The translations under genes and the position numbers were made by a program. Of a stretch of 64,000 bases of DNA, positions 5,926-45,839 are shown piece after piece. The stretch covers positions 448,001 to 512,000 of the forward strand of contig CAVPPB010000003.1 in assembly GCA_963707215.1 (NCBI GenBank). The letters run 5' to 3'. Within the stretch, counting starts at the first letter, position 1, and each line of letters opens with the position of its first letter. The DNA comes from an uncultured Chloroflexia bacterium. GTDB taxonomy: Bacteria > Chloroflexota > Limnocylindria > Limnocylindrales > CSP1-4. The notes beneath the pieces were generated by a model, which saw nothing but the letters and a program-made list of their open reading frames with translations, was not told where the DNA came from and ran no database searches.

Positions 5926-7962
5926 ATGCGTGCCATGATCTCCGGCCTCGCCCTGACCATCGCGGCGACGATCCCCTCCCCGGTGACCACGACCCAGCCG
6001 ACCCTGGCGGCCGAGGCGCCCGCCCCGATCGCGACCCCTAGGGCAGCCGGACCCGACCGCTTCTCGACGGCCGTCGAGGTGACCCGGCGACTCTTCCCGG
6101 CCGGCCCTGCCCCCGTCGTCTACCTAGCCTCCGGTGAAACGTTCGCCGATGCCCTGGCGGCCGGACCGGCGGCGGCGATCACCCGCGGAGCCGTCCTGCT
6201 GACCCTCCGTGATCGTCTTCCGTCGGTCGTCGAGGCAGAGCTCGTCCGGCTGGCGCCGGCGAAGGTCATCGTCGCTGGCGGTCCGGGCGCCATCTCCAAA
6301 TCGGTCGTGGCCAGGGTCCGGGCGGTCCTCGGTGACGGGGTCACCGTCGAGCGGCAGGCGGGACCGGACCGCTACGAGACCGCGGCCGCCGTCACCGCCG
6401 CGGCTTTCCCGACCGGCTCGACCCCCACCGTCTTCGTGGCCTTCGGCGGTGACTTCCCCGACGCCCTTGCTGCAGGGGCGGCCGCGGCCGGGATCGGCGC
6501 GCCGGTCCTGCTCACGCGGTTCGATGGTGTCCCACCTGCCACGGTCGACGAGCTCACGCGCCTGCGCCCGGAGCGGATCGTCGTCGTCGGCGGCACGGCC
6601 GTCGTCTCGGCCGCGGTCGAGCAGACGCTGGCCGCCTTCACCCCGACGGTCGAGCGGCTGGCCGGACCGGACCGGTTCGCCACGGCCGCTGCAGTCGCGG
6701 CTCGTTTCTTCCCGGCTGCCGGCACGGTGGTCGCCGCCACCGGTCTCGCCTACCCGGACGCCCTGGCGGCGGTGCCCCTTGCCGCCTCACTCGGGGCACC
6801 GATCCTGCTGGTGCGGCCGACATCGGTCCCCTCCCCGACGCGCGACCGAGTCGTCGCCACCGATCCATCCACGATCCTGGCCATCGGAGGTCCCGCCGCC
6901 GTCGCCGGGTCGACCCTCGACGAGCTGGCCGCCTGGGCGTTCGGACGTCTCACGTCGCTCCCGAGCGGGCCGGGCTACCCGAGGTACGACTCGCGCTACC
7001 ACGACGAGCGCGAGATGATCGTCGCCATCCGGGCGGCCGAGGCTCGCTACCCGCAGCTCGTACAGGTGTTCTCGATCGGCAAGAGCCACCAGGGCCGTGA
7101 TATCTGGGCCGCCAAGGTCTCCGACAACGTCGCGGTCGACGAGCCGGAGCCGGAAGTCCTTGTCGACGCGCTCCACCACGCCCGGGAGCACCTGACCGTC
7201 GAGCAGGCGATCTACCTGCTCGACGTCCTGAGTCGGGACTACGCTAGGGACGCCAGGGTGCGCTCCCTCGTCGACGCCCGCGAGACATTCATCATCTTCG
7301 CCCTCAACCCCGACGGCTGGGCCTACGACCTCACCGGAAGCCCGTACCGGGGCTGGCGCAAGAACCGCCAGCCCAACAGCGGGACCAGCTACGTCGGCAC
7401 GGATCCCAACCGGAACTACGACTACCGCTGGGCCTGCTGCGGCGGCTCGTCGGGCAACCCGGCGGCCTGGAACTACCGCGGCCCGAAGCCGTTCTCGGCA
7501 CCCGAGACGAAGGCCCTTGCCACGTTCGTGAACAGCCGCGTCGTCGATGGGCGACAGCAGATCCGGACCCACGTGACCTTGCACACGAACGGCGAGCTGA
7601 TCCTCTATCCCTACGGCTACACCAAGGCCGACGTCCCGTCGGACATGACCGTCGATGACCACGCCACCTTCGTGGCGATGGCCCGGGCGATGGCCCGGCT
7701 GAACGGCTACAAGCCCGAACAGTCGAGCGACCTCTACGTCACTGACGGCGACCAGATCGACTGGATGTACGGCCGCCACCGCATCTTCTCGTTCACCTTC
7801 GAGCTCTACCCGCCCGAGACGGTCGCCAAGCCGAACGATCACGAGCCTCCCGACGAGGTCATCGCGACCCAGAACGCCCGCAACCGTGGCGCCCTGCTCT
7901 ACCTTGTCGAGATGGCCGGCTGCCCCTACGCGGCCATCGGCAAGGCCGGCGCGTACTGCTGA
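5926..7962 (+). CDS. Secreted M14 zinc carboxypeptidase (carboxypeptidase T-like) with three N-terminal cell-wall-binding-2 repeats
   Basis: Three GxDR(F/Y)xTA...DALAA...(A/P)(V/I)LL repeats. Catalytic domain has HHARE, NPDG, WRKNR, D.NRNY, LH..GELILYPY and FTFE. Confidence 0.9.
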   Translation: MRAMISGLALTIAATIPSPVTTTQPTLAAEAPAPIATPRAAGPDRFSTAVEVTRRLFPAGPAPVVYLASGETFADALAAGPAAAITRGAVLLTLRDRLPSVVEAELVRLAPAKVIVAGGPGAISKSVVARVRAVLGDGVTVERQAGPDRYETAAAVTAAAFPTGSTPTVFVAFGGDFPDALAAGAAAAGIGAPVLLTRFDGVPPATVDELTRLRPERIVVVGGTAVVSAAVEQTLAAFTPTVERLAGPDRFATAAAVAARFFPAAGTVVAATGLAYPDALAAVPLAASLGAPILLVRPTSVPSPTRDRVVATDPSTILAIGGPAAVAGSTLDELAAWAFGRLTSLPSGPGYPRYDSRYHDEREMIVAIRAAEARYPQLVQVFSIGKSHQGRDIWAAKVSDNVAVDEPEPEVLVDALHHAREHLTVEQAIYLLDVLSRDYARDARVRSLVDARETFIIFALNPDGWAYDLTGSPYRGWRKNRQPNSGTSYVGTDPNRNYDYRWACCGGSSGNPAAWNYRGPKPFSAPETKALATFVNSRVVDGRQQIRTHVTLHTNGELILYPYGYTKADVPSDMTVDDHATFVAMARAMARLNGYKPEQSSDLYVTDGDQIDWMYGRHRIFSFTFELYPPETVAKPNDHEPPDEVIATQNARNRGALLYLVEMAGCPYAAIGKAGAYC

Positions 7963-32792: not shown

Positions 32793-33158
32793 TCAGGCGC
32801 CGCGCATCGACCGGAAGCAGTCGGAGCAGTACACCGGCTTGCCGTTGGTCGGCTTGAAGGGCAGGCGCGCCTCGTTGCCGCAGTTCGAGCAGGTCGCGGT
32901 ATAGGTCGGCCGCGGGCCGCGGTCGCTGTATCCGCCGCTCGAGTAGCCGCCGCCGGCAGAGTAGCCGCCGCCGGCAGAGTAGCCGCCGCCGGCAGAGTAG
33001 CCGCCGCCGGAGTCGCGCTGGGCCTTGCGGGCGGCCCGGCAGCTGGGGCACCGACGAGGCTCGGAAAAGCCGCGCTCGGCGTAGAACGCCTGATCCCGCT
33101 CGGTGAAGACGAACGACTGGCTGCAGTCGCTGCAGGTCAGGGTGCGGTCCTGGTACAC
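32793..33158 (-). CDS. Zinc-ribbon plus CxxC-x17-CxxC domain protein with Gly/Tyr/Ser-rich linker
   Basis: CSDC...F..RGF..PRRCPSC, then CSNC...PFKP...PVYCSDCF; SD AGAGGAG. Confidence 0.92.
   Translation of the reverse strand: MYQDRTLTCSDCSQSFVFTERDQAFYAERGFSEPRRCPSCRAARKAQRDSGGGYSAGGGYSAGGGYSAGGGYSSGGYSDRGPRPTYTATCSNCGNEARLPFKPTNGKPVYCSDCFRSMRGA
32941..33010 (-). repeat. 18-bp coding tandem repeat (GGGYSA), about 4 copies
   Basis: GAGTAGCCGCCGCCGGCA at 32941, 32959 and 32977, partial at 32995. Confidence 0.9.
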
Positions 33159-34427: not shown

Positions 34428-35438
34428 TCACCGGGAGCTCGTCGGCAGGCGGACGACGAGCGGCTCGCCATGCCTCCGCTCGACGAGCCCGTCCCGAGCG
34501 AGCCCCTCGAGGGCCGACTCGACGGCAGCCGGGGGATGCTCGCCGATCGGCCCGCTGAGCCGCGCCCACTCGCCGTCCGGCAGGTCGCGCAACCGGTCGA
34601 CGATCCTCCCCCGCAGCCAGCGGTTGGAGCTGCGGAAGGGCACGGCGCCCTCCCGTGCAGCCGACGCTCGGCCGCGCACTGGTCGCTCCGGCCCGCCCGA
34701 CGCCCGATCGGCCTGGTCGGCTCCGGTGGCCGCCGTCCGACACCAGGGCCGGAGCGGGCAGCCCGGGCAGTCGGGCGCGGTGGACCGGCAGACCCTGGCC
34801 CCGAGATCCATCATCGCGTGCGTCCAGGCGCCGGGTCGCTCAGGAGGGACCAGCAGGTCCGCGAGCGCCTGCAGGCGACGGGGCGACGGGGCCGTCCCGG
34901 GACCGACGAGCCGGGAGATGACCCGGCGGACGTTCGTATCGACGGCCCCGACGGGTGAGCCATAGGCGATCGCGGCGATCGCCCGGGCCGTGTACGGACC
35001 GACGCCCGGAAGGCGCTCCAGCTCAAGGACCGTCGAGGGCACCCGGCCGCCGTGCTCGTCGACGATCGCGCTGGCAGCTTGCTGGAGGGCCAGGGCCCGG
35101 CGGTTGTAGCCCAGGCCGCGCCAGGCCCGAAGGACCTCGGCCGGCGATGCCGCAGCAAGCGTGGCCGGATCGGGGAAGCGGATCATGAAGGCGACCCAGG
35201 CTTCGCCGGCACGGGCGGCCTGCGTCTGCTGGGCCATCGCCTCCGATACCAGGACCGCCCACGGGTCGGCCGTCCCACGGAACGGCAGCGCTCGGTCGTC
35301 GGGCCGGTGCCAGCCCAGCAGTGCCCGACGGATGGGAACGACGGCCAGGGCGTCTCCAGCGGCGGTGTCGCCACCCGCGCGGGACGACATCGGCCGGAGG
35401 CCGGACGGCGACCGCGGCACGGCACGTCGGGCAGGCAT
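34428..35438 (-). CDS. mutY: A/G-specific adenine glycosylase (short form, no Nudix-like C-terminal domain)
   Basis: VSEAMAQQT, WRGLGYNRRA, LPGVGPYTA, VDTNV and the C-x6-C-x2-C-x5-C Fe-S motif. Alternative start at 35390. Confidence 0.9.
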   Translation of the reverse strand: MPARRAVPRSPSGLRPMSSRAGGDTAAGDALAVVPIRRALLGWHRPDDRALPFRGTADPWAVLVSEAMAQQTQAARAGEAWVAFMIRFPDPATLAAASPAEVLRAWRGLGYNRRALALQQAASAIVDEHGGRVPSTVLELERLPGVGPYTARAIAAIAYGSPVGAVDTNVRRVISRLVGPGTAPSPRRLQALADLLVPPERPGAWTHAMMDLGARVCRSTAPDCPGCPLRPWCRTAATGADQADRASGGPERPVRGRASAAREGAVPFRSSNRWLRGRIVDRLRDLPDGEWARLSGPIGEHPPAAVESALEGLARDGLVERRHGEPLVVRLPTSSR

Positions 35439-35489
35439 CGCGGTCGAGCCTAGCAGGTACCCTGCTGTCCACAGCGGGAGGGCGATGAG

Positions 35490-36407
35490 ATGCGATTCGG
35501 GGCCGCGTTCTGGGTCCAGCGGACCGACTGGCCGAGCCTGCGCGATGCGGTGCTCGAGGCCGAGGCGGCCGGCTTCGATTCCCTCTGGATCGACGACCAC
35601 CTCCTGTGCGATGAGGGCGACTGGACCTCGGGCAAGCTCGAGGGCTGGGGCGTCGCCTCGGCACTCGCTTCCCTGACCGCGCGGGCCACGATCGGGCACC
35701 TCGTCGTGGCCAACACCTTCCGCAACCCCGGGATCACGGCCAAGCAGGCCGTGACCCTCGACCACCTGAGCGGCGGGCGAGCCGTGCTGGGCATCGGCGG
35801 CGCCTGGTTCGAGCGCGAGCACGAGGCATTCGGGATCGAATTCGGGAGCGGCTTCGGCGAGCGGCTCGATCGGCTCGCCGAGGCGGTCGAGATCATCAGC
35901 CGGCTCCTGGCCGGCGAGCGCCTCCACTACGACGGACGCTTCTACTTGATGCGAGACGCCCTCTGCGCGCCCGGTCCGATCCAGCCGAAGCTGCCTATCC
36001 TCATCGGTGGTTCCGGACCGAGGAAGACGCTGCCGCTGGTCGCTCGCTATGCCGACCTCTGGAACGCCTATGGCACGCCTGCCGAGCTGGCCGCGAAGGA
36101 CGCTCTGCTGCAGGAACGGTGCGCCGACATCGGGCGGGATCCATCCACGATCGAGCGCATGGTCAACCACAACGTCGTGATCCGCGACGATCCGGCCTCG
36201 GCGGAGGCCGCCTGGGACGAGTGGGTGCGGACCGGGGTCGATGCCGAGGAGCGCGTCCTCATCGGCGGTCCCCCCGTCCGCATCGCGGAGGCCCTCCGTC
36301 CGTACGTCGAGGTCGGCTTCGACCACGTCGTCTGGATCCTCCGCTCCCCTTGGGACCTGGAGACGATCCGTCGCCTGCCAGAGGTCCGGGCCGCCCTCGA
36401 GCCCTGA
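35490..36407 (+). CDS. LLM-class (probably F420-dependent) oxidoreductase
   Basis: GFDSLWIDDH, NTFRNP, LDHLSGGR..LGIG and ILIGGSG...ARYADLWN. Confidence 0.9.
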   Translation: MRFGAAFWVQRTDWPSLRDAVLEAEAAGFDSLWIDDHLLCDEGDWTSGKLEGWGVASALASLTARATIGHLVVANTFRNPGITAKQAVTLDHLSGGRAVLGIGGAWFEREHEAFGIEFGSGFGERLDRLAEAVEIISRLLAGERLHYDGRFYLMRDALCAPGPIQPKLPILIGGSGPRKTLPLVARYADLWNAYGTPAELAAKDALLQERCADIGRDPSTIERMVNHNVVIRDDPASAEAAWDEWVRTGVDAEERVLIGGPPVRIAEALRPYVEVGFDHVVWILRSPWDLETIRRLPEVRAALEP

Positions 36408-36551
36408 CGAGCCGCGCGATCTCACGCGGCGGTGCGCCCACGCACCGCCCGCCGGATGCCCCGTCGCCGCCGGGCCATCGGTCCCGGGACGGCGGGCCGT
36501 CCGGCCCGGCCCTACGGGACCCCTCGGCAGCATCCCGCTCCGGTGGTTGCG

Positions 36552-36591
36552 GTGAAGATTTCGAGCGATTTGACGCGCTTGAGCGGGTCGA
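36552..36591 (+). promoter_or_regulatory. Array of five (T/G)(T/C)GA-N5 direct repeats at exact 9-bp period (candidate operator)
   Basis: GTGA 36552, TCGA 36561, TTGA 36570, TTGA 36579 and TCGA 36588, just upstream of SD GGAGG (36611). Confidence 0.5.
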
Positions 36592-36620
36592 CCGCTCGGC
36601 GGACCGACGCGGAGGCAGCC

Positions 36621-37337
36621 TTGGCGCCGACCGGCCAGCATCCCGCCACCCCCGATCAATGGCTGTCCATCCGCGAGGCGGCCGACCTGATCGGCGTCTC
36701 GCCGGCCACCCTGCGACGCTGGAGCGACGCTGGGGAGATCGAGGCCTTCACGACCCCCGGCGGCCACCGCCGCTTCTCGCGCCGAGCCGTCGAGGCGATG
36801 CTCCCGGCGGCCGAGGGCACCCGGTCTGTCCGCGAGATGGGCGTCACCCCAGAACGACTGGCGCGGATCTACCACCGCCTGGCCAACCGCATGGTCGCCG
36901 ACACACCCTGGGCAAGGGCACTCGACAGCGCGCAGCGAGGGCCCTACCGCGAGCATGGCCGGCGGATCGGCAGCGCGCTCGTCTACTACCTCGATGCTCC
37001 CGACGAAGTGTCGCGGGAGGCGGCCATCGTCATCGCCGAAGAGGCCTGTCGCGAGTACGGCCGGCTGGCGGCCGAGGACGGTTCCGGCCTCGCCGAAGCG
37101 ATCGAGCTGTTCATGCGCTTCCGGATGGTCTTCCTCCGGGAGATGACCTCGCTGGCCCGGCGACACGCCCTCGACATCGTCGAGGCGACGAGCCTCCTCG
37201 AGTCCACCCACCGAGCCTTCGATCGCCTGCTCCATGCGATCCTCGTCGCCTACCAGGCGAACGCGTCCCCGGCCATCGCGGCCTCGCCCACGGACGAGCC
37301 CAGCGTCCCGGCCTCGAACGGGCGGGGTCCGCGATGA
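36621..37337 (+). CDS. Excisionase/BldC/MerR-like HTH regulator with C-terminal globin-like helical sensor domain
   Basis: WLSIREAADLIGVSPATLRRW...TPGGHRRF; all-helical C domain (YGRLAAEDG..LAEAIELF). TTG start with GGAGG 5 nt upstream. Confidence 0.8.
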   Translation: MAPTGQHPATPDQWLSIREAADLIGVSPATLRRWSDAGEIEAFTTPGGHRRFSRRAVEAMLPAAEGTRSVREMGVTPERLARIYHRLANRMVADTPWARALDSAQRGPYREHGRRIGSALVYYLDAPDEVSREAAIVIAEEACREYGRLAAEDGSGLAEAIELFMRFRMVFLREMTSLARRHALDIVEATSLLESTHRAFDRLLHAILVAYQANASPAIAASPTDEPSVPASNGRGPR

Positions 37338-38545
37338 CCGACCTGCTCGAGCGCCCCGTCGAGGGCGCGACACCCGCCGGGCTGCAGGCCCCCTGGCGGC
37401 GCTCCACCGTCGTGGCCTTCGTGGCCCACGCCCGTGACGTCGCCAGCCCGGATCGGGAAGCCTTCGCCGAGCGTCTGGCCGCCGAGGCCCCGAGCGAGGG
37501 CGCGATCGTCGTCCACACCTGCCACCGCGTCGAGCTCTACGTCGCCCCGGCCGCATGGGGCGAGCGGCCGCTGCCGTCACTGCCCGACGGCACCCGGACG
37601 CTCGACGACGTCGCCGCCGCCCGTCACCTGATCGAGGTCGCCTGCGGGCTCGACAGCGCCGTGATCGGCGAGGACCAGATCCTGCACCAGCTCCGCGAGA
37701 CCGTCGCCGAGCGCCACTCGACCTTCCCCCTTGAGCCGGTCCTCGACCGGCTCTTCCAGGCGGCGCTCCACGCCGGCCGCCAGGCCCACACCTGGTTCAG
37801 TGGCTCCCACAGGTCCCTGGCCGACGTCGCCCTCGACCTCGTCGAGGAGCGGACCGGCGCGCTCCATGACCGTCCGATCCTGGTCGTCGGGGCCGGCCGG
37901 ATGGGGCGCCTTGCCGCCTTCGCGGCGTCGCGCCGCGGCGGCCACGTCCACATCAGCAATCGACACGAGGACCGGGCCGAGGCCCTGGCCCACGACACCG
38001 GCGGTCGCGTGGTGCCGTGGGGAGGCGTCCCCCTCGACCCGGCTCCGGCGGGCATCGTGCTCGCCATCGGCGGCGCATGGCAGGTCGACCGAGAGGGCTT
38101 GACGGAGCTGCTCGAGGGCAGCGCCGTCGTGGTCGACCTGTCATCGCCGGCCGCCATCGGAGACGACGTCCAGGCGGCCCTGGCCGGACGCTACGTGTCC
38201 GTCGACGAGCTGGCCGAGACACCCGAGGCGACGCTCCCCGGCCGCCTGCGTCGACGGCTCGACACGCTCGTGTCGGAGACCGGCCGAGAGTACTGCCAGT
38301 GGCTCCGGAGCCGCGAGAGCGCACCGGCGATCCGGGCGATGGCCGCCGCGGCCGAGGAGCGCCGGCGAGCCGAGGTCGGCTGGCTCCTTCGCCGGCTGCC
38401 CGACCTGGCCGACGATGAGCAGGCGCTCGTCGAGCAGATGACCCACCGACTCGTTGCGAGCCTGCTCCACGCCCCCTTCTCGGCGCTGAACGCCGATGCC
38501 GACGGGGAGCTCGAGCGGGCCGCCCGAGAGCTGTTCGCACTGTGA
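37334..38545 (+). CDS. hemA: Glutamyl-tRNA reductase
   Basis: TCHRVELY, GLDSAVIGEDQIL, VVGAGRMG and the C-terminal LLHAP dimerisation domain. Confidence 0.9.
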   Translation: MTDLLERPVEGATPAGLQAPWRRSTVVAFVAHARDVASPDREAFAERLAAEAPSEGAIVVHTCHRVELYVAPAAWGERPLPSLPDGTRTLDDVAAARHLIEVACGLDSAVIGEDQILHQLRETVAERHSTFPLEPVLDRLFQAALHAGRQAHTWFSGSHRSLADVALDLVEERTGALHDRPILVVGAGRMGRLAAFAASRRGGHVHISNRHEDRAEALAHDTGGRVVPWGGVPLDPAPAGIVLAIGGAWQVDREGLTELLEGSAVVVDLSSPAAIGDDVQAALAGRYVSVDELAETPEATLPGRLRRRLDTLVSETGREYCQWLRSRESAPAIRAMAAAAEERRRAEVGWLLRRLPDLADDEQALVEQMTHRLVASLLHAPFSALNADADGELERAARELFAL

Positions 38546-40263
38546 CCGCCATGCGTCCCCTCCGCCTCGGCACGCGCGGCAGCGCCCTGGCGCTCGCCCA
38601 GTCTGGCACGGTGGCCGACGCGCTTCGCGCGCTGGGCGCCAAGGTCGAGATCGTCCGCATCCGGACCGAGGGCGACCAGCGGCCGCCGGACACGGCCTGG
38701 GGCGAAGGGGCCTTCGTGGGTGCGCTCGAGCAGGCTCTCCTCGACGGGACGGTCGACCTCGCCGTCCACAGCGCCAAGGACGTCCCGACCACCGAGGACC
38801 CCCGGCTGACCATCGCCGCCTTCCCGGGCCGGGAGGATCCGCGGGACGCCCTGGTGATCGGCGGCGCCGGCGGCTCGCTGGAGTCCCTCCCGGACGGTGC
38901 CAGGGTCGGGACCGACAGTCCCCGCCGATCGGCCTTCCTGCTGGCCCGACGACCGGACCTGCGGCTCCATCCGCTCCACGGCAACGTCGACACGCGGCTC
39001 CGCCGGCTCGCGTCGGGCGAGACCGACGCCCTGGTCCTGGCCGTGGCCGGGCTCACCAGGCTCGGTCTCGCCGAGCGGATCTCGGAGGTCCTCCCGCCTG
39101 AGACCGTGCCGCCGGCCCCCGGTCAAGGCTCGCTGGCGATCCAGTGCCGGTCCGACGACCAGGCGACCCTTGCCTGGGTCCGACGTCTCGACGACGCGGA
39201 CACCCGGGCTGCGGTCGAGGCCGAGCGGACGTTCCTGCGCGCCAGCGGCGGCGGCTGCCGGGCGCCCATCGGCGCGCTGGCCGAGGTCCGCGACGGGACC
39301 CTGACGCTCTCCGCCGGCTCGGCCGGGCCGACCTGGCCGGATGCCGAGCAGCCGGGTGGGCGGGCACCCGTGGTGGCCCGAGGCGAGGTCGCGGGGCCGG
39401 TCGGCGACCGCCTGGCGCTGGCTGCCTCGCTGGCGGTCCGCCTTGCCGACGAGCTCGCGAGCCACCTGCCGCCCGAGCCCGCCAGCCGAGCGCTCCATCG
39501 TGCGGCCCCGCGCGTCCTCGTGACCCGGGCGGTCGAGCAAGCCGGCCCGCTGGTCGCCGCCCTGGAGGAGCGCGGCCTGGACGTGGTCGCCGTCCCGACG
39601 ATCGAGCTCCGCCCCGCGATCCCGGGCGGCGAGCTCGACGACGCCGTCGCAGGCCTCGGCGAGTACCGCTGGGTCGTCGTCACCTCGGCCAACGGTGCCA
39701 GCGCGATCCTCGACGCCGCCGGACGCGTGGGCATCGATCCCGCCGTCGGCCGATGGGCCTCCGTCGGCAGGACCACGACCGCGGTCCTGGCTGGCAGCGG
39801 CATCGAGGTCGCCCTGACGCCGGGCAGGTCAAGCGGCGACGGTCTGGCCGACGAGCTCCCGATCTCGGCCGGCGAGCGCGTCCTGCTGGCCCGGGCCGAC
39901 ATCGCCGACGGGCGCCTGCCGGCGCGGCTGCGCGAACGAGGCGCGGTCGTCGACGAGGTCGTGGCCTACCACACCGTCGAGTCGCCCGAGGCGTCCCGGG
40001 ACCCGCTCCGCCGGGCTCTCGCCGAGGCCCGGTTCGACGCCCTGGTCTTCACCAGCGGATCGACCATCCGCGGTCTCCTGGCGCTCCTCTCACCGCAGGA
40101 GCGGCGCATCGTCCTCCGCGCGCTCGCCTGCTGCATCGGCCCCACCACTGCCCGCGAGGCCCGCGAGGCCGGCTTCGGGCGGATCGTCGAGGCGCCGATG
40201 CAGACCGCCACCGCCCTGGCCGACACGATCGTCGGCGCCGTCCGAGACGAGGTACCCGCATGA
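38542..40263 (+). CDS. hemC: Fused hydroxymethylbilane synthase / uroporphyrinogen-III synthase (HemC-HemD)
   Basis: [25 protein letters not shown] and GGGC; then VLVTRA, TSANG, AYHT, FTSGST and CIGPTT. Confidence 0.93.
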
Positions 40264-41300
40264 GCAGCAAGGTGATGGAGCGGCCCGCGCTCCTCGGTGA
40301 TCAGGCCCATGTCCCGGACCCGGCCCATCGGCTCCGCCGCCTCCGCCGGTCGCCCCAGCTGCGGGCGCTGGTCCGGGAGACGCGACCGGATCCACGCCAG
40401 CTGATCGCTCCCCTGTTCGTGCAGCCCGGACGGGCGGTCCGCGACCCCATCTCCTCGCTTCCTGGCGTCTCCCGGCTCTCCCCGGACGAGGCCGTCGCGG
40501 AGGCCCGTCGGCTTGCCGCGCTGAGGGTCGGCGGGATCATCCTGTTCGGCCTGCCGGAGGGCAAGGACGGCGACGGGAGCGGCGCCTGGATCGCCGATGG
40601 GATCATCCAGGACACGCTGGCCCGCCTCCGCGACGAGGACCCCGACCTGGTCCTCGTCGCCGACACCTGCCTCTGCGAGTACACCGACCACGGCCACTGC
40701 GGACCGCTCCTGGCCGACGGCCGGGTCGACAACGACGCCGCCATCGCCCTGCTGGCCGAGACCGCCGTCTCGCAGGCACGGGCCGGGGCCGACATCGTCG
40801 CGCCGAGCGCGATGATGGACGGTCAGGTGGCGGCCATCCGGGCCGGCCTGGACAGCGCCGGCTTCCCCGACACGGCCATCCTGGCCTATGCCGCCAAGAC
40901 GGCTTCGGCCTTCTACGGTCCGTTCCGCGAGGCGGCCGACTCGGCCCCCGCCTTCGGCGATCGGCGCGGCTACCAGCTGGACCCGGCCAACCGGCGCGAG
41001 GCGATGCGCGAGATGACCGTCGACCTCGACGAGGGCGCCGACGCGCTCCTGGTCAAGCCGGCGATGCCGTCGCTCGACATCCTGGCGGCAGCTCGAGCGC
41101 GCTTCGAGGTCCCGATCGCGGCCTACCAGGTGAGCGGCGAGTACGCCCAGATCGAGGCCGCCGCTCGGCTCGGCTGGATCGACCGCCGCCGGACCCACCT
41201 CGAGGCGCTGACCTCGATCGTCCGGGCCGGGGCGGGGATGGTCATCACCTATGCGGCCGCGGATCTCGCCGCCTGGCTGCGGGACGGGATCGAGGCGTGA
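40260..41300 (+). CDS. hemB: Porphobilinogen synthase
   Basis: [34 protein letters not shown] and YQVSGEY. Confidence 0.96.
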
Positions 41301-42583
41301 CCGTGACCACCAACGGCCGGCAGGCGACCCTCGTGGCGGCGGCCGAGGACCTCTTCCCGGGCGGGGTGAACAGCCCGGTCCGCGCGTTCCGCTCGGTGGG
41401 TCGGCGACCGATCGTCCTCGAGGCGGGCTCCGGGCCGAGGGTCAGGGACGCCGACGGGCACTGGTACGTCGACTTCATCGGCGCCTGGGGACCGGCCATC
41501 CTGGGGCACGCCAACCCCGCGGTCATCGAGGCGGTCCGGGCGGCGGCCCTCGACGGGTTCGCCCTCGGGGCGACGTCGCCGCGCGAGGTCGCCCTCGGCG
41601 CGGCCATCCGGTCGGCGATGCCGTCCCTGGAACGGCTCCGGTTCACCTCCTCGGGAACCGAGGCAGCCATGAGCGCGCTTCGGGTCGCGAGGGGGGCCAC
41701 CGGCAGGGACCTCGTCCTCAAGTTCGCCGGCGGCTACCACGGCCACTCCGACAGTCTCCTCGTCGAGGCGGGGTCGGGCGTCGCCACCCTGGCCCTCCCC
41801 GGCAGCGCCGGAGTCCCGGCCGCCATGGCCGCCGGGACCATCGTCGTGGAGTTCAACGACCTCGAGGCGGTCCGAGCGGCCTTCGCGACCTATCCGGGCC
41901 GCATCGCGGCCGTCATCGTCGAGCCGGTGGCGGCGAACGTCGGGGTGATCCCGCCGGCGCCCGGCTTCCTGGAGGGCCTCCGCGAGGTCACGGCGGCGGA
42001 CGGCGCCCTGCTCGTCTTCGACGAGGTCATCACCGGCTTCCGGGTCGCCCACGGCGGGGCGCAGGCCCGCTTCGGCATCAGGCCGGACCTGACCGTCCTC
42101 GGCAAGATCATCGGTGGCGGGATGCCGATCGGGGCCTACGGCGGGCGCCACGAGCTGATGGACCTGGTCGCCCCGGTGGGGCCCGTTTACCAGGCCGGGA
42201 CGCTGTCCGGGCATCCGATCACGATGGCAGCCGGCACGGCCACCCTGGCCATGCTCGACGGCTCCGTCTACGAGCGGCTCGAGGCAAGCGGGGCGAGGCT
42301 GGAGGCGGAGCTCGCCGACGCGGCAGAGACGGCAGGGCGGACGATCGCCATCACTCGCGTCGGGGCGCTCCTCACCGTCTTCTTCCGGCCGACCCGACCC
42401 GTCTCGAGCGCCGAGGCGATGGCCTCCGACCGGGACGCCTTCGCCCGCTTCTTCGGGGCGATGCTGGACCGCGGCATCCTCCTGCCGCCGTCGCCGTTCG
42501 AGGCCTGGTTCATCTCCCTCGCCCATGACGGCGCCGCCCTCGACGAGACGATCGCGGCGGCCCGGGAGGCCTTCGCGGCATGA
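41297..42583 (+). CDS. hemL: Glutamate-1-semialdehyde 2,1-aminomutase
   Basis: [32 protein letters not shown] and YQAGTLSG. Confidence 0.97.
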
Positions 42584-43674
42584 GCGGTGACGCGACGATG
42601 GCTGCGCCGATCAGCGGGAGCCCGACCGATCGCCGCGCCGAGCCTCGGGCGACGCGCTACCTCCGGGCCACCCGCCGCGAGCCGGTCGACACGACACCGG
42701 TCTGGTTCATGCGCCAGGCCGGCCGGGCCCTGCCCGAGTTCCGGGCCGTCCGGAAGACCGCCTCGCTGGTCGAGATCACCCGCGACCCGGCCCTCTGCGC
42801 CGAGGTGACCCTGCAGCCGGTCCGTCGGCTGGGGGTCGACGCTGCGATCCTCTTCGCGGACATCACCACCCCGCTGGCCGGGCTCGACGTGGCCTTCGAC
42901 ATCAAGCCCGGGGTGGGCCCGGTCATCGATCGGCCGGTCCGCACCCCGGCCGATCTCGCGGCCCTCCGCCCCTTCGAGCGGGATGCCCTCAAGCCGCTCT
43001 TCGAGGCCATCAGCCTCATCCGCGCCGAGAGCCCGGTCCCCCTCATCGGCTTCGCCGGCGCGCCGTTCACCCTTGCCTGCTACCTGGTCGAAGGCGGTCC
43101 CTCGCGGCAGTTCCTGCGGACCCGGACCCTGATGCGCTCGGAGCCGGCCCTGTGGACCGGGCTGATGGACCGGCTCGTCGCCATGACGATCGAGTACCTG
43201 GGTGCCCAGGTCGAGGCCGGCGCCCAGGCCGTCCAGCTCTTCGACTCCTGGGTCGGCGACCTCGGGCCGCGCGACTACGAGCGCCACGTCGCGCCGTGGA
43301 TGCGGCAGCTCTTCGACGGCCTGGTCCCGCTCGGGGTGCCGACCACCCATTTTGGCGTCGGGACCGCGGGGCTGCTGGCCCTCCAGGCCGCTGCCGGCGG
43401 CGACGTCATCGGGCTCGACTGGCACGTGACGCTGGCGGACGGCTGGGGGCTGGTCGGCGACCGCGCGGTCCAGGGCAACCTCGACCCGTCACTGCTCCTC
43501 GGCCCGTTCGAGGACGTCGCCGAAACGTCGCGCTGGATCCTGGACCAGGCCGCCGGCCGGCCCGGCCACGTCTTCAACCTGGGGCACGGCGTGCTGCCCG
43601 ACACCGACGCCGACGACCTCCGCCGGCTCGTCGACCTCGTCCACGACCACCGCCCGCCAAGGAGCGTCCCATGA
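42580..43674 (+). CDS. hemE: Uroporphyrinogen decarboxylase
   Basis: PVWFMRQAGR, DAAILFADI, QLFDSW, QGNLDP and FNLGHG. Confidence 0.97.
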   Translation: MSGDATMAAPISGSPTDRRAEPRATRYLRATRREPVDTTPVWFMRQAGRALPEFRAVRKTASLVEITRDPALCAEVTLQPVRRLGVDAAILFADITTPLAGLDVAFDIKPGVGPVIDRPVRTPADLAALRPFERDALKPLFEAISLIRAESPVPLIGFAGAPFTLACYLVEGGPSRQFLRTRTLMRSEPALWTGLMDRLVAMTIEYLGAQVEAGAQAVQLFDSWVGDLGPRDYERHVAPWMRQLFDGLVPLGVPTTHFGVGTAGLLALQAAAGGDVIGLDWHVTLADGWGLVGDRAVQGNLDPSLLLGPFEDVAETSRWILDQAAGRPGHVFNLGHGVLPDTDADDLRRLVDLVHDHRPPRSVP

Positions 43675-44627
43675 CCACCGACCCCCGACCGGCCGTGCTC
43701 CTCATGGCCTACGGCAGCCCCGATCGGCTCGACCAGGTCGAGGCGTACTACACCGACATCCGCCGCGGCAACCCGCCCCCACCCGAGCTGCTCGAGGAGC
43801 TCCTCGAGCGATACCGCGCGATCGGTGGCGGCTCGCCGCTCTCCGGGATCGTCGAGCGCCAGCGAGCCGCCCTCGAGGCCGAGCTCGCCCGACGCGGCAG
43901 CCCGGTCCCCGTCTACGCCGGCATGCGCCACATCGAGCCGCGGATCGGGGCGATGGTGGGCCGGATGGTCGACGACGGGATCGACGGGTTCGTGGCCATC
44001 GCCCTGGCACCTCAGCGCTCCTCGAACGCCGCCGGCTACCGCCGGGCTGTCGAGGGGCGACTCGCCGACGCGGAGGGCGGGCCGAGCTACCGGATCGTCG
44101 GATCGTGGCACGACGAGCCCTGCTTCATCGAGGCCCTCGCCGCGGCGACCCGGACGGCGCTCGAGCGGACCGCCGACCCGACGACGGCCCGGGTGATCTT
44201 CACCGCCCACAGCCTGCCGACCCGCGTCGTCGCGGAGGGAGACACCTATCCGCAGGAGCTGGCCCGAACGGCCGCCCTCGTGGCCGATCGGCTCCACCTC
44301 GACCGCTACGAGTTCGCTTTCCAGAGCGCCGGGAGGACCGGCGAGCCCTGGCTCGGTCCGGACCTCCGGGACGAGCTGCGGCGACTCGCCAAGGACGGCG
44401 TCTGCGAGGTCGTCGTCTGCCCGGTGGGTTTCGTGGCCGATCACCTCGAGGTGCTCTACGACATCGACATCGAGGCGCGCGCGGTCGCCGATGAGCTCGG
44501 CCTCCGCCTGGAGCGGGCGCCCTCGATGAACGACGACCCGACCTTCATCGCCGGCCTGGCCGACGTCGCCGAGCGGGCGCTCGGCGAGCTGCCGTCCGGC
44601 ACCACCACGGGCGCCGGGGTCGCCTGA
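43671..44627 (+). CDS. hemH: Coproporphyrin ferrochelatase (CpfC/HemH, monoderm type)
   Basis: LLMAYGSP, FTAHSLP, QSAG...PWLGP and GFVADHLEVLYDID. Confidence 0.95.
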   Translation: MTTDPRPAVLLMAYGSPDRLDQVEAYYTDIRRGNPPPPELLEELLERYRAIGGGSPLSGIVERQRAALEAELARRGSPVPVYAGMRHIEPRIGAMVGRMVDDGIDGFVAIALAPQRSSNAAGYRRAVEGRLADAEGGPSYRIVGSWHDEPCFIEALAAATRTALERTADPTTARVIFTAHSLPTRVVAEGDTYPQELARTAALVADRLHLDRYEFAFQSAGRTGEPWLGPDLRDELRRLAKDGVCEVVVCPVGFVADHLEVLYDIDIEARAVADELGLRLERAPSMNDDPTFIAGLADVAERALGELPSGTTTGAGVA

Positions 44628-44630
44628 GCC

Positions 44631-45839
44631 ATGACGACAGGAACCAGGCCGACGATGGCCGCGCAGACCGCTCACGTACCGACGCACCCCGGTGGACATC
44701 CCGGTGGTCACCCGGGCGGACATCCGGGCGGGCACCCGGCTGCCGTCGGGGCGGTCAAGCCGGACGGCTACGTCTACGGCCGCGCTCCGATGCTGGTCTA
44801 CTGGGAGACGACCCTCTCCTGCGGCCTCACCTGCCGCCACTGCCGGGCCACGGCGATGCCGGAGCGGAGCCCCGAGGAGCTGACCAGCGAGGAAGGCTTC
44901 GGGCTGCTCGATCGGATCCTGGGCTTCGGGCGTCCCTTCCCCCACGTGGTCTTCACCGGCGGGGATCCCCTTCGGCGCCCGGATCTCGAGACCCTCGTCG
45001 AGGCCGCCACCGAGCGCGGCATCGGCGCCTCGCTGGCGCCGGCGGCGACCGACGAGCTGACGCTGGAGCGGCTGGCCCGCCTGAAGGCGGCCGGCATCCA
45101 GACGATGTCGCTCTCGATCGACGGGTCGGACGCCGAGCGCCACGATGGCTTCCGGGGCGTTCCCGGCACCTTCGACAAGACGCTCCTGGCGGCCCGCTGG
45201 GCCCACGAGGTCGGCTTGCCGCTCCAGATCAACACCCTCATCACCGACGAGACGCTGTCCGACCTGCCGGCGGTCTACGAGCTGATGACGACGCTCGGGA
45301 TCATCCGCTGGAGCCTCTTCTACCTGATCAGCGTCGGCCGGGGTACCGACCTGCGCGAGATCACGGCGGCCGACTCCGAGCGCCTCAACGGCTGGTTCTA
45401 CGACCTGTCCAGGGAGGCCCCGTTCATCATCAAGACGACCGAGGCGACCCATTACCGGCGGGTCGCCATCCGGCGGATGACCGCGGACGGTCTCGACGAG
45501 GACGCCATCGCCGCGACCTCGGTGGGGCGCGGGTTCGGGGTCCGCGACGGCAACGGGATCATGTTCGTGGCTCACGATGGCTGGGTCTACCCGTCCGGCT
45601 TCCTGCCCGTGCGGACCGGCAACGTCCGGACCGACGACATCGTCGAGCTCTATCGGCAGCACCCCGTCTTCACCGGCCTCCGCGACGTCAGCGCCTTCAA
45701 GGGCCGCTGCGGGCGCTGCGAGTACGCCGAGGTCTGCGGCGGGTCGCGGGCCCGGGCCTTCGCCTGGACGGGCGACTACCTCGAGTCCGATCCGCTCTGC
45801 CCGTACGTGCCGCCGTCGGCGCCCGGCGCGGAGCACTGA
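44631..45839 (+). CDS. Radical SAM/SPASM protein (AhbD/NirJ-like, TIGR04053-type) with N-terminal HPGG repeats
   Basis: WETT..CGLTCRHCRA, FTGGDP, C-terminal CGRC...CGGSRARA...DPLC. Confidence 0.88.
   Translation: MTTGTRPTMAAQTAHVPTHPGGHPGGHPGGHPGGHPAAVGAVKPDGYVYGRAPMLVYWETTLSCGLTCRHCRATAMPERSPEELTSEEGFGLLDRILGFGRPFPHVVFTGGDPLRRPDLETLVEAATERGIGASLAPAATDELTLERLARLKAAGIQTMSLSIDGSDAERHDGFRGVPGTFDKTLLAARWAHEVGLPLQINTLITDETLSDLPAVYELMTTLGIIRWSLFYLISVGRGTDLREITAADSERLNGWFYDLSREAPFIIKTTEATHYRRVAIRRMTADGLDEDAIAATSVGRGFGVRDGNGIMFVAHDGWVYPSGFLPVRTGNVRTDDIVELYRQHPVFTGLRDVSAFKGRCGRCEYAEVCGGSRARAFAWTGDYLESDPLCPYVPPSAPGAEH

Follow-up and report, generated by a model that had tools for sequence, protein, structure and literature searches.

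The 64-kb window analyzed here, that is, positions 448,001 to 512,000 of the forward strand of contig CAVPPB010000003.1 (assembly GCA_963707215.1), comes from an uncultured Chloroflexia bacterium and contains an eight-gene cluster in which all of the genes are on the + strand. The first gene (36621..37337, +) encodes a protein that carries a helix-turn-helix (HTH) domain, hereafter the regulator; it is followed by hemA, hemCD, hemB, hemL, hemE, hemH, and a gene encoding an AhbD-like radical S-adenosylmethionine (SAM) protein, and adjacent genes share 4 nt or 1 nt or leave gaps of ~10 nt or less between them. An original prediction, made from the sequence alone, placed the regulator at the head of a hem operon; this arrangement is confirmed, with seven heme genes tightly packed behind the regulator on the same strand.

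The regulator gene starts with TTG and encodes 238 amino acids (the coordinates include the stop codon); it is single-copy in its own genome. A Shine-Dalgarno sequence, GGAGG (36611..36615, +), lies 5 nt ahead of the TTG, and the protein collection holds an identical 238-residue protein (P0002); for these two reasons we assign the start to the TTG at 36621 and not to the in-frame GTG or TTG codons farther upstream. At the other end of the gene, the TGA of the regulator (37335-37337) and the ATG of hemA (37334-37336) overlap as ATGA (37334-37337); this 4-nt stop/start overlap agrees with the coupling to hemA that had been proposed, and the identity of hemA is confirmed by its GlutR_N and GlutR_dimer domains. 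A long open reading frame (ORF) on the opposite strand (34428-37580) was rejected as a high-GC artifact over the regulator stretch; the + frame has 1240 homologs (E ≤ 1e-3). The only names given to these homologs in the sources are ‘excisionase family DNA binding protein’ and ‘helix-turn-helix domain-containing protein’.

Downstream, hemA (37334..38545, +) encodes glutamyl-tRNA reductase (GlutR_N, 4.8e-23; GlutR_dimer, 1.4e-18; also Shikimate_DH), and the hemC-hemD fusion (38542..40263, +) encodes the activities of hydroxymethylbilane synthase (NCBIfam hemC, 1.4e-85, residues 7-261) and uroporphyrinogen-III synthase (HemD models, residues 320-568). The fusion is a single 573-residue ORF that is also found in most related loci; several distant loci show two separate matches. 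Next are hemB (5-aminolevulinic acid dehydratase; 40272..41300, +, with an approximate start codon; Pfam ALAD, 7.9e-130), hemL (glutamate-1-semialdehyde aminomutase; 41297..42583, +), hemE (uroporphyrinogen decarboxylase; 42580..43674, +; Pfam URO-D, 2.5e-115), and a ferrochelatase gene of the hemH/cpfC type (43674..44627, +; Pfam Ferrochelatase, 2.6e-80; NCBIfam hemH, 217 bits, over the cut-off). The name hemL is based on conserved position and similarity rather than on a family scan; by tblastn, genes 62-85% identical to the hemL ORF follow hemB in related loci. The last gene (44631..45839, +) encodes a radical SAM/SPASM protein (NCBIfam TIGR04053, 449.7 bits with a cut-off of 395) that scores 298 bits against the model for the heme b synthase AhbD, under the cut-off of 500; its homologs (41-46% identity) lie directly after the regulator in two other loci (L122 and L124). 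ChdC/HemQ (PF06778) has no match in the assembly (84.8% complete), and the TIGR04053 protein may be an oxygen-independent coproheme decarboxylase that acts after the CpfC-type ferrochelatase. As annotated, the cluster probably spans the pathway from glutamyl-tRNA to heme b.

The regulator begins with a winged HTH of the BldC/MerR/excisionase type (36660..36803, +; residues 14-61). The original prediction had called an excisionase/BldC-like HTH in this ORF from the motifs TLRRW and TPGGHRRF; both are present in the translation, and residues 14-61 match Pfam HTH_17 (E 1.1e-12), MerR (2.9e-10), and MerR_1. The NCBIfam model for BldC-type HTH proteins (NF033787) also matches these residues and no others (E 7.2e-13; 48.2 bits, under the 77-bit cut-off). 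When compared with the PDB by sequence, the family profile finds HTH relatives only, including the BldC structures 6ama and 6amk (E 1.2e-9 and 4.1e-9), the cobalamin-binding protein 8jbs (E 6.5e-9), CarH 5c8d (E 1.2e-3), and Thermus LitR 3whp; structurally, the HTH matches BldC with Z 7.8 and a root-mean-square deviation (rmsd) of 1.8 over 52 residues. In our conservation set of 132 family rows (129 labeled by genomic context and three at contig ends), G25, T30, R32, W34, G47, G48, R50, and R51 are 100% conserved and H49 is 99-100% conserved. R33 and H49, which align with the BldC DNA-contact residues R30 and H46, are kept in 93% and 99% of the hem-linked rows. These matches place the winged HTH in the BldC/CarH/excisionase branch of the MerR-like domains.

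Beyond the HTH, the AlphaFold2 model (built from 61 homologs; mean predicted local distance difference test score, pLDDT, 84.4) is helical throughout, as expected from the proposal that the HTH is joined to an all-helical domain. A linker of lower model confidence (36804..36848, +; residues 62-76; pLDDT 64 for residues 61-70) leads to a predicted five-helix globin-like domain of the non-heme type (36849..37265, +; residues 77-215), with long helices at 77-94, 103-125, 129-152, 157-181, and 186-215 and a short helix at 96-100. The model therein differs from classical MerR proteins: the coiled-coil dimerization helix is absent, and its place after the HTH is taken by the low-confidence linker (61-76) and the globin-like bundle.

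We identified the fold by searching 48,161 chains with VIA-align; the matches are dominated by globin-like domains over residues 66-217. The top match is pXO2-61 (Z 14.5, rmsd 2.2, 132 of 132 residues), followed by the N-terminal domain of MabR (Z 12.2) and the Moorella RsbR-like protein MtR (Z 11.7). Heme sensor globins match over 129-135 aligned residues (DosC, Z 11.0; AfGcHK, 10.5; BpeGReg, 10.2; GsGCS, 10.2), with HemAT at Z 8.7; the phycobilisome protein ApcE and allophycocyanin are at Z ~10, RsbR-N is at 9.6, and the globin domains of photocobilins are at 9.3 and 8.5. Helical bundles can score Z ~13 by chance in VIA-align; we accept ‘globin-like’ because the top match exceeds this mark and spans the whole domain and because nearly all of the strong matches share one fold. 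Foldseek against the PDB yielded no match at E ≤ 0.001 (the best, CarH and BldC via the HTH, have E ~0.009), and it returned the heme sensor globins at probability 1.0 but with E 0.05-0.2, so the fold assignment rests on VIA-align. In the model, helix E (129-152) leads into helix G (157-181) through a 4-residue loop, with no F helix between them; in the available text on the crystal structure of N-MabR, the F helix is likewise absent and the helices, labeled B, E, G, and H, form B/E and G/H pairs (PMC11617747). From this confident model, we take the C-terminal domain to be a globin-like sensor with five helices (A, B, E, G, and H) that belongs to the non-heme kind. The globin-like fold that had been judged by eye is thus recovered by structure prediction and fold search, with non-heme globin sensors as the best matches and heme sensor globins behind them.

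Neither Pfam nor NCBIfam has a family for the C-terminal domain of this protein, and the same is true of Pfam for the 61 aligned members. A profile of the domain (77 sequences) searched against 1.84 billion representatives finds 592 proteins or clusters at E ≤ 1e-3 and 233 at E ≤ 1e-10; among the 150 matches listed, nearly all are 200-270 residues long with the domain at ~65-220, or are fragments. The longer carriers (P0250, P0253, P0178, and three others) contain no extra Pfam domain and hence no fusion that hints at a ligand, and a search of the protein Atlas returns only clusters of the family itself (scores ≤ 0.85). Judged from these sequences, the domain is essentially confined to a single HTH-globin-like architecture. 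A homodimer prediction for two copies of the domain gave a score of 0.47, compared with 0.36 for the control, and speaks neither for nor against dimerization.

Any sequence relation of this domain to the RsbR sensors would be distant. Pfam RsbRD_N (PF14361) misses the regulator at E ≤ 1, all 61 aligned members at E ≤ 0.01, and, in a genome scan, the regulator gene at E ≤ 10; some homologs carry weak precomputed PF14361 matches. True RsbRD_N genes occur at other loci in the phylum, in the same genomes (15 matches in 12 of 151 genomes). In an hhalign comparison the C-terminal domain and RsbRD_N align over 89 collinear columns with a probability of only 27% (E 6.8e-4), and R168 and D201 fall on conserved R and D positions of RsbRD_N. 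Possibly, then, the domain is a distant relative of RsbRD_N and not a member.

Twelve C-domain positions are conserved in at least 90% of the family rows (W97, R106, R110, G113, A139, Y146, G147, F164, F167, R168, D201, and L204), with R168, D201, W97, R110, and Y146 invariant. The conserved positions recur with helical periodicity (106/110/113, 132/139/146/150, 164/167-168/171/174, and 192/196/201/204 in helices B, E, G, and H); it is from this periodicity that we infer a putative Arg-lined pocket. The original prediction had also noted several His, several Tyr, and one Cys in the helical domain; the count holds (5 His, 6 Tyr, and 1 Cys in residues 66-238), but the His and Cys residues are not conserved. 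Across the 129 labeled members, His and Cys both stay under 90% in every column of residues 66-217: H112 is elsewhere R, Y, or another residue, and C142 is elsewhere A, S, or M. H211, at the extreme end of helix H, is His in 66 of 104 rows, and no other fixed helix-core position has a majority of His. Heme binding by the single Cys or by the His residues was rejected on this ground. The absence of both an F helix and a conserved His or Cys makes classic heme ligation unlikely, and canonical His-ligated heme sensing is, from alignment and model, likewise unlikely. The conserved Arg residues would suit a carboxylate-bearing ligand. Two further positions differ with genomic context, Y84 and E174, each of which is kept in 90 of 104 hem-linked members vs 7 and 8, respectively, of 25 unlinked members; this contrast is confounded by phylogeny.

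The association of the regulator with hem genes is evident in its genome neighborhoods. We examined the closest loci: species-representative genomes gave at least 564 matches, of which we took the best 79; these are mostly from Chloroflexota, many labeled Limnocylindria, and seven are of the Actinomycetota type (L005-L007, L010, L012, L026, and L079). A hem gene starts within 250 nt downstream on the same strand in 74 of the 79 (hemA in 65, hemCD in 7, hemB in 2), and two of the five exceptions are contig edges. To cover distant members we inspected 20 weaker matches, spread over 19 family codes of the phylum, together with 6 kb of flanking sequence in either direction. In 11 of these, the first 1.1 kb downstream holds a hem or AhbD-like gene, and in one more hemA lies 3.7 kb downstream, after NirDL-like and ChdC genes. 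Whether homologs are associated with hem genes had been named as a check on the original prediction; they are, in the 74 closest loci and in 12 of the 20 distant ones.

The association persists when the cluster is split. One locus (L035) has two copies of the regulator, one before hemB-hemL (906-1505) and one before hemA-hemCD (6001-6609), and the paralogs in a single assembly represented by L001 and L020 likewise head separate hemB-hemL and hemA-hemCD sub-operons. In L093/L145 and in L098, two paralogs are arranged divergently and only one of them heads hem genes. In a sample of 301 genomes from the phylum, 119 carry the domain (78 of 172 genera); for the best 30 places in this sample (1.5-kb flanks), a hem gene adjoins the regulator in 16, two more hold two divergent copies (in L145, one copy heads hemA-hemCD-hemB-hemL-hemE), and the remaining 12 have none. 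The regulator and hemA are both present in 99 of the 301 genomes and both absent in 91; the regulator alone is found in 20 and hemA alone in 91, the last class including five unpublished genomes (G038, G227, G173, G272, and G145). These genomes are related and not independent, so we place no weight on the nominal P value.

We also mapped linkage on a quick maximum-likelihood tree of the 132 rows (LG+G4, with support from Shimodaira-Hasegawa-like approximate likelihood ratio tests, SH-aLRT, only; many branches among the distant rows are long). The hem-linked rows, 104 of the 129 that are labeled, are found on both sides of the deepest (midpoint) split, and the linkage label changes 12-14 times on the tree, with at least 8 changes forced by the starred branches. 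On this comparative evidence, linkage to heme genes is old and recurrent and persists through rearrangement, but it is not universal.

The neighborhood of the Actinomycetota copies consists of cytochrome c maturation genes, a multiheme cytochrome c gene, the regulator, and hemA, in this order. Among the Actinomycetota-type loci, the regulator precedes hemA in five of seven; in L026, genes encoding ResB, CcsA, and a thioredoxin-like protein are followed by a multiheme cytochrome c gene and then the regulator. On the tree, the copies from Actinomycetota (Dermatophilaceae, Micrococcales, Phycicoccus) group as a single clade (SH-aLRT 99) inside a Chloroflexota clade near the protein from the window, and the hemA products of these loci are 54-57% identical to that of the window. 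This placement suggests a possible transfer between phyla, perhaps of the regulator and hemA together.

Upstream of the regulator is a candidate operator that was absent from the original prediction and is new here. It consists of two tandem direct repeats, GATTTCGAGC and GATTTGACGC (36557..36576, +), each of which fits ATTT-N4-C, with the core GATTT-N5-GATTT at 36557-36571; it lies 45 nt before the regulator start and is separate from the ribosome-binding site (36611-36615). The repeat pattern occurs once in the 64-kb window on both strands (0 expected), and the core pattern occurs once in the whole 3.26-Mb assembly (0 for the reversed control). The upstream regions of the homologs share a tandem direct repeat, typically TAGATTTGAGTAGATTTTG, usually located just after a TGnTAnAAT-like -10 element and just before the start codon. 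GATTTG is present in 55 of the 79 upstream regions (160 nt each), where the coding background of these loci would give 0.2, and G[AG]TT[TC] cores 9-11 bp apart precede 54 of the 79 homologs vs a mean of 0.29 and a maximum of 2 in 200 shuffles; the spacing is 9 bp in 26 instances and 10 bp in 36. In the Actinomycetota loci the regulator gene directly adjoins the coding sequence before it, which is why the repeat is missing there. Repeats precede distant hem-linked members as well (L119, L121, L123-L125, and L133). One variant was observed: in place of the usual 9-10-bp repeats, L020 has a 13-bp unit, GTGAGGTTCGGGC, present four times in perfect tandem ~45-85 nt ahead of regulator codon 14, and its close relative L052 has this unit once. 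Inverted repeats in the GC-rich segment 36428-36521 were also considered as an operator and dropped, since they are not conserved upstream of the homologs.

These repeats resemble the sites of BldC from Streptomyces. According to the available text of PMC5859096, BldC binds direct repeats head-to-tail with a protomer site of AATT-N4-C, its His46 reads the narrowed minor groove of AT-rich DNA, and its Arg30 reads a G-C pair. The regulator has an HTH from the same MerR-like branch that keeps both the GGHRR wing, with its minor-groove His, and the Arg of the recognition helix, and its candidate sites are likewise AT-rich direct repeats with a 9-10-bp period. The two proteins differ in that BldC is a single domain of 68 residues, whereas the regulator has 238 residues with a helical sensor domain of ~140 residues; moreover, BldC oligomerizes head-to-tail by its HTH alone and serves a large developmental regulon, whereas the exact repeat of the regulator occurs once in the genome. 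The regulator also falls short of the BldC model (48 vs 77 bits) and lacks the counterparts of K26 and K36. From this comparison, BldC-like binding of the regulator to the tandem repeats seems to us a reasonably probable mode of DNA recognition.

We therefore propose, as the best overall explanation and one that we consider probable on balance, that the regulator is a one-component transcription regulator that is autoregulated and dedicated to the hem operon that it heads; its dedication to the operon, taken by itself, is likely. In this proposal the HTH would bind the tandem direct repeats, which have the AT-rich core (T/G)AGATTT and a period of 9-10 bp, as suggested by the comparative evidence, probably with two or more head-to-tail protomers. 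The location of the repeats between the -10-like element and the start codon of the regulator suggests repression and autoregulation, so the regulator would probably be a repressor, and the regulated unit would be the whole regulator-hemA-hemCD-hemB-hemL-hemE-hemH-radical SAM transcript. The globin-like domain may bind a small anionic ligand via invariant R168 together with R106, R110, Y146, D201, and W97, and ligand binding may change the occupancy of the DNA. As a hypothesis, the ligand could be made by the pathway itself, either at its end or on the way (heme b, coproheme, a porphyrin, or a bilin), and be held by its carboxylates and by ring stacking instead of a His-Fe bond, and it could thereby provide feedback control.

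Several observations weigh against this proposal or restrict it. The tie to heme does not extend to every lineage: no hem gene follows 8 of the 20 distant members, the 129 labeled tree rows include 25 that are unlinked, among them a solid clade of nine (in a sister family, beside peptidase genes), and 20 of the 119 genomes that carry the family have no match for glutamyl-tRNA reductase. Most of the loci are from related Chloroflexota, so the counts overstate independence. At the level of DNA recognition, two of the four named DNA-contact residues of BldC differ (K26 is A29 and K36 is E39), and no sigma-70-like promoter was found by the repeats, the consensus promoter/terminator scan of 36300-37500 being empty. 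The repeats also precede unlinked members (L130, L138, and L141-L143); because they precede hem-linked and unlinked members alike, they mark the autoregulation of the family, that is, its own promoter, and not heme control as such. Finally, the closest structural relatives reportedly bind a fatty acid (the pXO2-61/RsbR type) or, for MabR, have no known ligand; they are not known to bind a tetrapyrrole.

Some of the unlinked copies have other neighbors of interest. Two of the eight unlinked distant members adjoin genes for PucC-type transporters of the major facilitator superfamily (L134, 3838-5804; L130, 4680-6026), and one of the two, L134, also has a gene for a ChuX/HutX heme-utilization protein beside the regulator; in the same locus hemA-hemC is located on the other strand, 2.7 kb away. 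As annotated, these neighborhoods are other tetrapyrrole-handling contexts. The genomes that carry the family and lack hemA include G009, G022, G034, G070, G160, G293, G124, G285, and G208; the copies that were checked in them are unlinked to hem genes.

The nature of the ligand is the point at which the alternatives diverge. Because of the pathway context, heme, coproheme, and porphyrins are the first candidates, and precedent exists for a tetrapyrrole in such a fold: in photocobilins, according to the available text of PMC10979010, a five-helix globin domain binds biliverdin non-covalently, which shows, by analogy, that a five-helix globin could hold a tetrapyrrole without a covalent bond or an Fe-His bond. 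We regard a tetrapyrrole ligand as a real possibility with the balance somewhat against it; feedback control by a tetrapyrrole is a reasonable hypothesis, not a result. More tentatively, and as a rather doubtful proposition in its full extent, the regulator may represent an unrecognized class of non-heme globin-fold tetrapyrrole sensor, with an Arg/Tyr-lined pocket and a BldC-type HTH on tandem repeats, that exerts feedback on the whole heme pathway; this class would be the main dedicated regulator of heme synthesis in Chloroflexota and would be shared by transfer with some Actinomycetota.

Alternatively, the regulator could control the same hem operon while its domain responds to a non-tetrapyrrole signal or only oligomerizes the HTH; such a signal might be a fatty acid or acyl-CoA, as in the nearest structural relatives, a different metabolite with a carboxylate or phosphate group, or redox or stress conditions. 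The best fold matches, all to non-heme proteins (pXO2-61, MabR-N, MtR, and RsbR-N), favor this explanation, as do the lack of conserved His or Cys and the members in contexts unrelated to heme. RsbR-type globins, the best structural matches and likewise without a heme-ligating His (RsbR-N, pXO2-61, and pXO1-118), carry, where the proximal His would be, a conserved Arg that binds the carboxylate of a ligand, reportedly a fatty acid, in the available text of PMC8717448; the invariant Arg of the regulator may correspond to this residue. Their outputs are stressosome STAS domains or the inhibition of sporulation kinases, whereas that of the regulator is an HTH. MabR (Rv2242), of the PucR type, resembles the regulator in being a transcription factor with a non-heme globin-like sensor; N-MabR is a dimer with no known ligand, as far as the available text of PMC11617747 describes it. 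In MabR, however, the order runs from an N-terminal globin through a GGDEF-like domain to a PucR HTH, and the protein controls the fatty acid synthase II operon, so domain order, HTH class, and genomic context all differ from those of the regulator. Against a signal unrelated to the pathway is the placement of the family by genes for heme synthesis, cytochrome c maturation, PucC, and ChuX across deep branches, for which a pathway-related signal is the simplest explanation; the Y84/E174 contrast, although confounded by phylogeny, also hints at a context-specific pocket. We judge a non-tetrapyrrole signal or a purely structural role for the domain to be unlikely, and we keep it as the principal competitor.

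The similarity of the HTH profile to CarH, LitR, and 8jbs, together with the photocobilin globins among the fold matches (Z 8.5-9.3), raises the question of light: a photoglobin-like domain with a bilin or porphyrin chromophore, coupled to a CarH/LitR-like HTH, could curb the synthesis of phototoxic tetrapyrroles in the light, and photoglobins do occur with HTH_17 and MerR outputs, the former in B12-coupled signaling contexts (PMC8717448, available text). However, B12 coupling is a hallmark of photoglobins, and no B12-binding domain is fused to the regulator (no Pfam match at E ≤ 1; NCBIfam CarH, 19 bits with a cut-off of 400) or present in the operon of the window or among the neighbors scanned. 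Likewise, in photoglobins and phycocyanin the bilin pyrroles are held by an Asp of the third helix, as described in the available texts of PMC8717448 and PMC10979010, and this Asp is not conserved in the regulator family: in 129-152 only A139, Y146, and G147 reach 90%. The phycobiliprotein and photocobilin matches rank under the RsbR-type matches, and photoglobins are found in light or signaling contexts, whereas the regulator is located with hem genes. We consider a light-responsive regulator to be quite improbable.

A classical heme-bound globin-coupled sensor, which would respond to gases or redox through a His-ligated heme as do HemAT, DosC, and AfGcHK and would use the HTH as its output, is very improbable: heme sensor globins share the sensor-globin topology and match at Z 10-11 over ~130 residues, but their proximal His is on helix F, the regulator lacks that helix and any conserved His (H112 and C142 vary), and the non-heme globins score higher. 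The suggestion that the repeats act in the mRNA leader, as an RNA element or translation signal, while the HTH protein has other targets is hardly credible, since, although the repeats between the -10-like element and the start codon are probably in the 5' untranslated region and the second repeat of one clade overlaps its GGAGG ribosome-binding site, an Rfam scan of 36300-36800 finds no match at E ≤ 1, both the unit and the 9-10-bp helical period of the repeats suit DNA sites of the BldC type, and the repeats accompany the regulator gene regardless of what lies downstream and in the window stand apart from the ribosome-binding site.

Bacterial regulators of heme synthesis already known include Rex, located upstream of hemACD in Streptomyces, PerR, Fur, Irr, and HrrSA/ChrSA, all of which have the same kind of job as that proposed for the regulator, being placed at or acting on the hemA operon. 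To our knowledge, they belong to unrelated protein families, and none has a BldC-type HTH with a globin-like domain. We found no published description of the regulator family in a search whose scope excluded subscription journals and supplements; the literature on excisionase family or HTH_17 proteins with hemA (glutamyl-tRNA reductase) yielded nothing, the RsbRD records among the matches listed concern, as far as those records go, stressosomes or unrelated topics, and the papers found on hemA, MerR, globins, and heme biosynthesis are erythroid or otherwise unrelated. The regulator thus represents a widespread, unnamed family in many Chloroflexota and some Actinomycetota that is probably an undescribed switch for the heme pathway; what is new is the combination of known modules, a BldC-type HTH and a globin-like domain, with a conserved operator candidate.

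For a few model bacteria it is known how heme and tetrapyrrole synthesis is controlled at the transcriptional level, and in the literature searched we found no such account for Chloroflexota, a large and mostly uncultured phylum of soil and sediment. The system is compact and testable: a small protein, a short candidate operator with no second copy in the genome, a single operon, and a handful of candidate ligands. If the ligand is a tetrapyrrole, the regulator would show that a globin fold can read porphyrins in a new manner that needs no His, would add the BldC-type HTH to sensor globins as a new output, and might furnish a small biosensor part for heme or porphyrins; the globin fold would then be tied to controlling how its own classical cofactor is made. 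A ligand of another kind would reveal the signal that these organisms couple to heme synthesis.

Two other features of the window were observed outside the hem cluster. Directly upstream of the regulator (35490-36407) is a gene for a TIGR03560-type F420-dependent luciferase-like oxidoreductase (226.8 bits, just missing the cut-off of 231.4), and a similar gene flanks the regulator, on either strand, in L029, L046, L056, L057, and L071. Farther upstream, on the - strand (32793-33158), a 121-residue ORF contains two zinc-ribbon-like halves of the form CxxC...CxxC with GGGYSA repeats between them.

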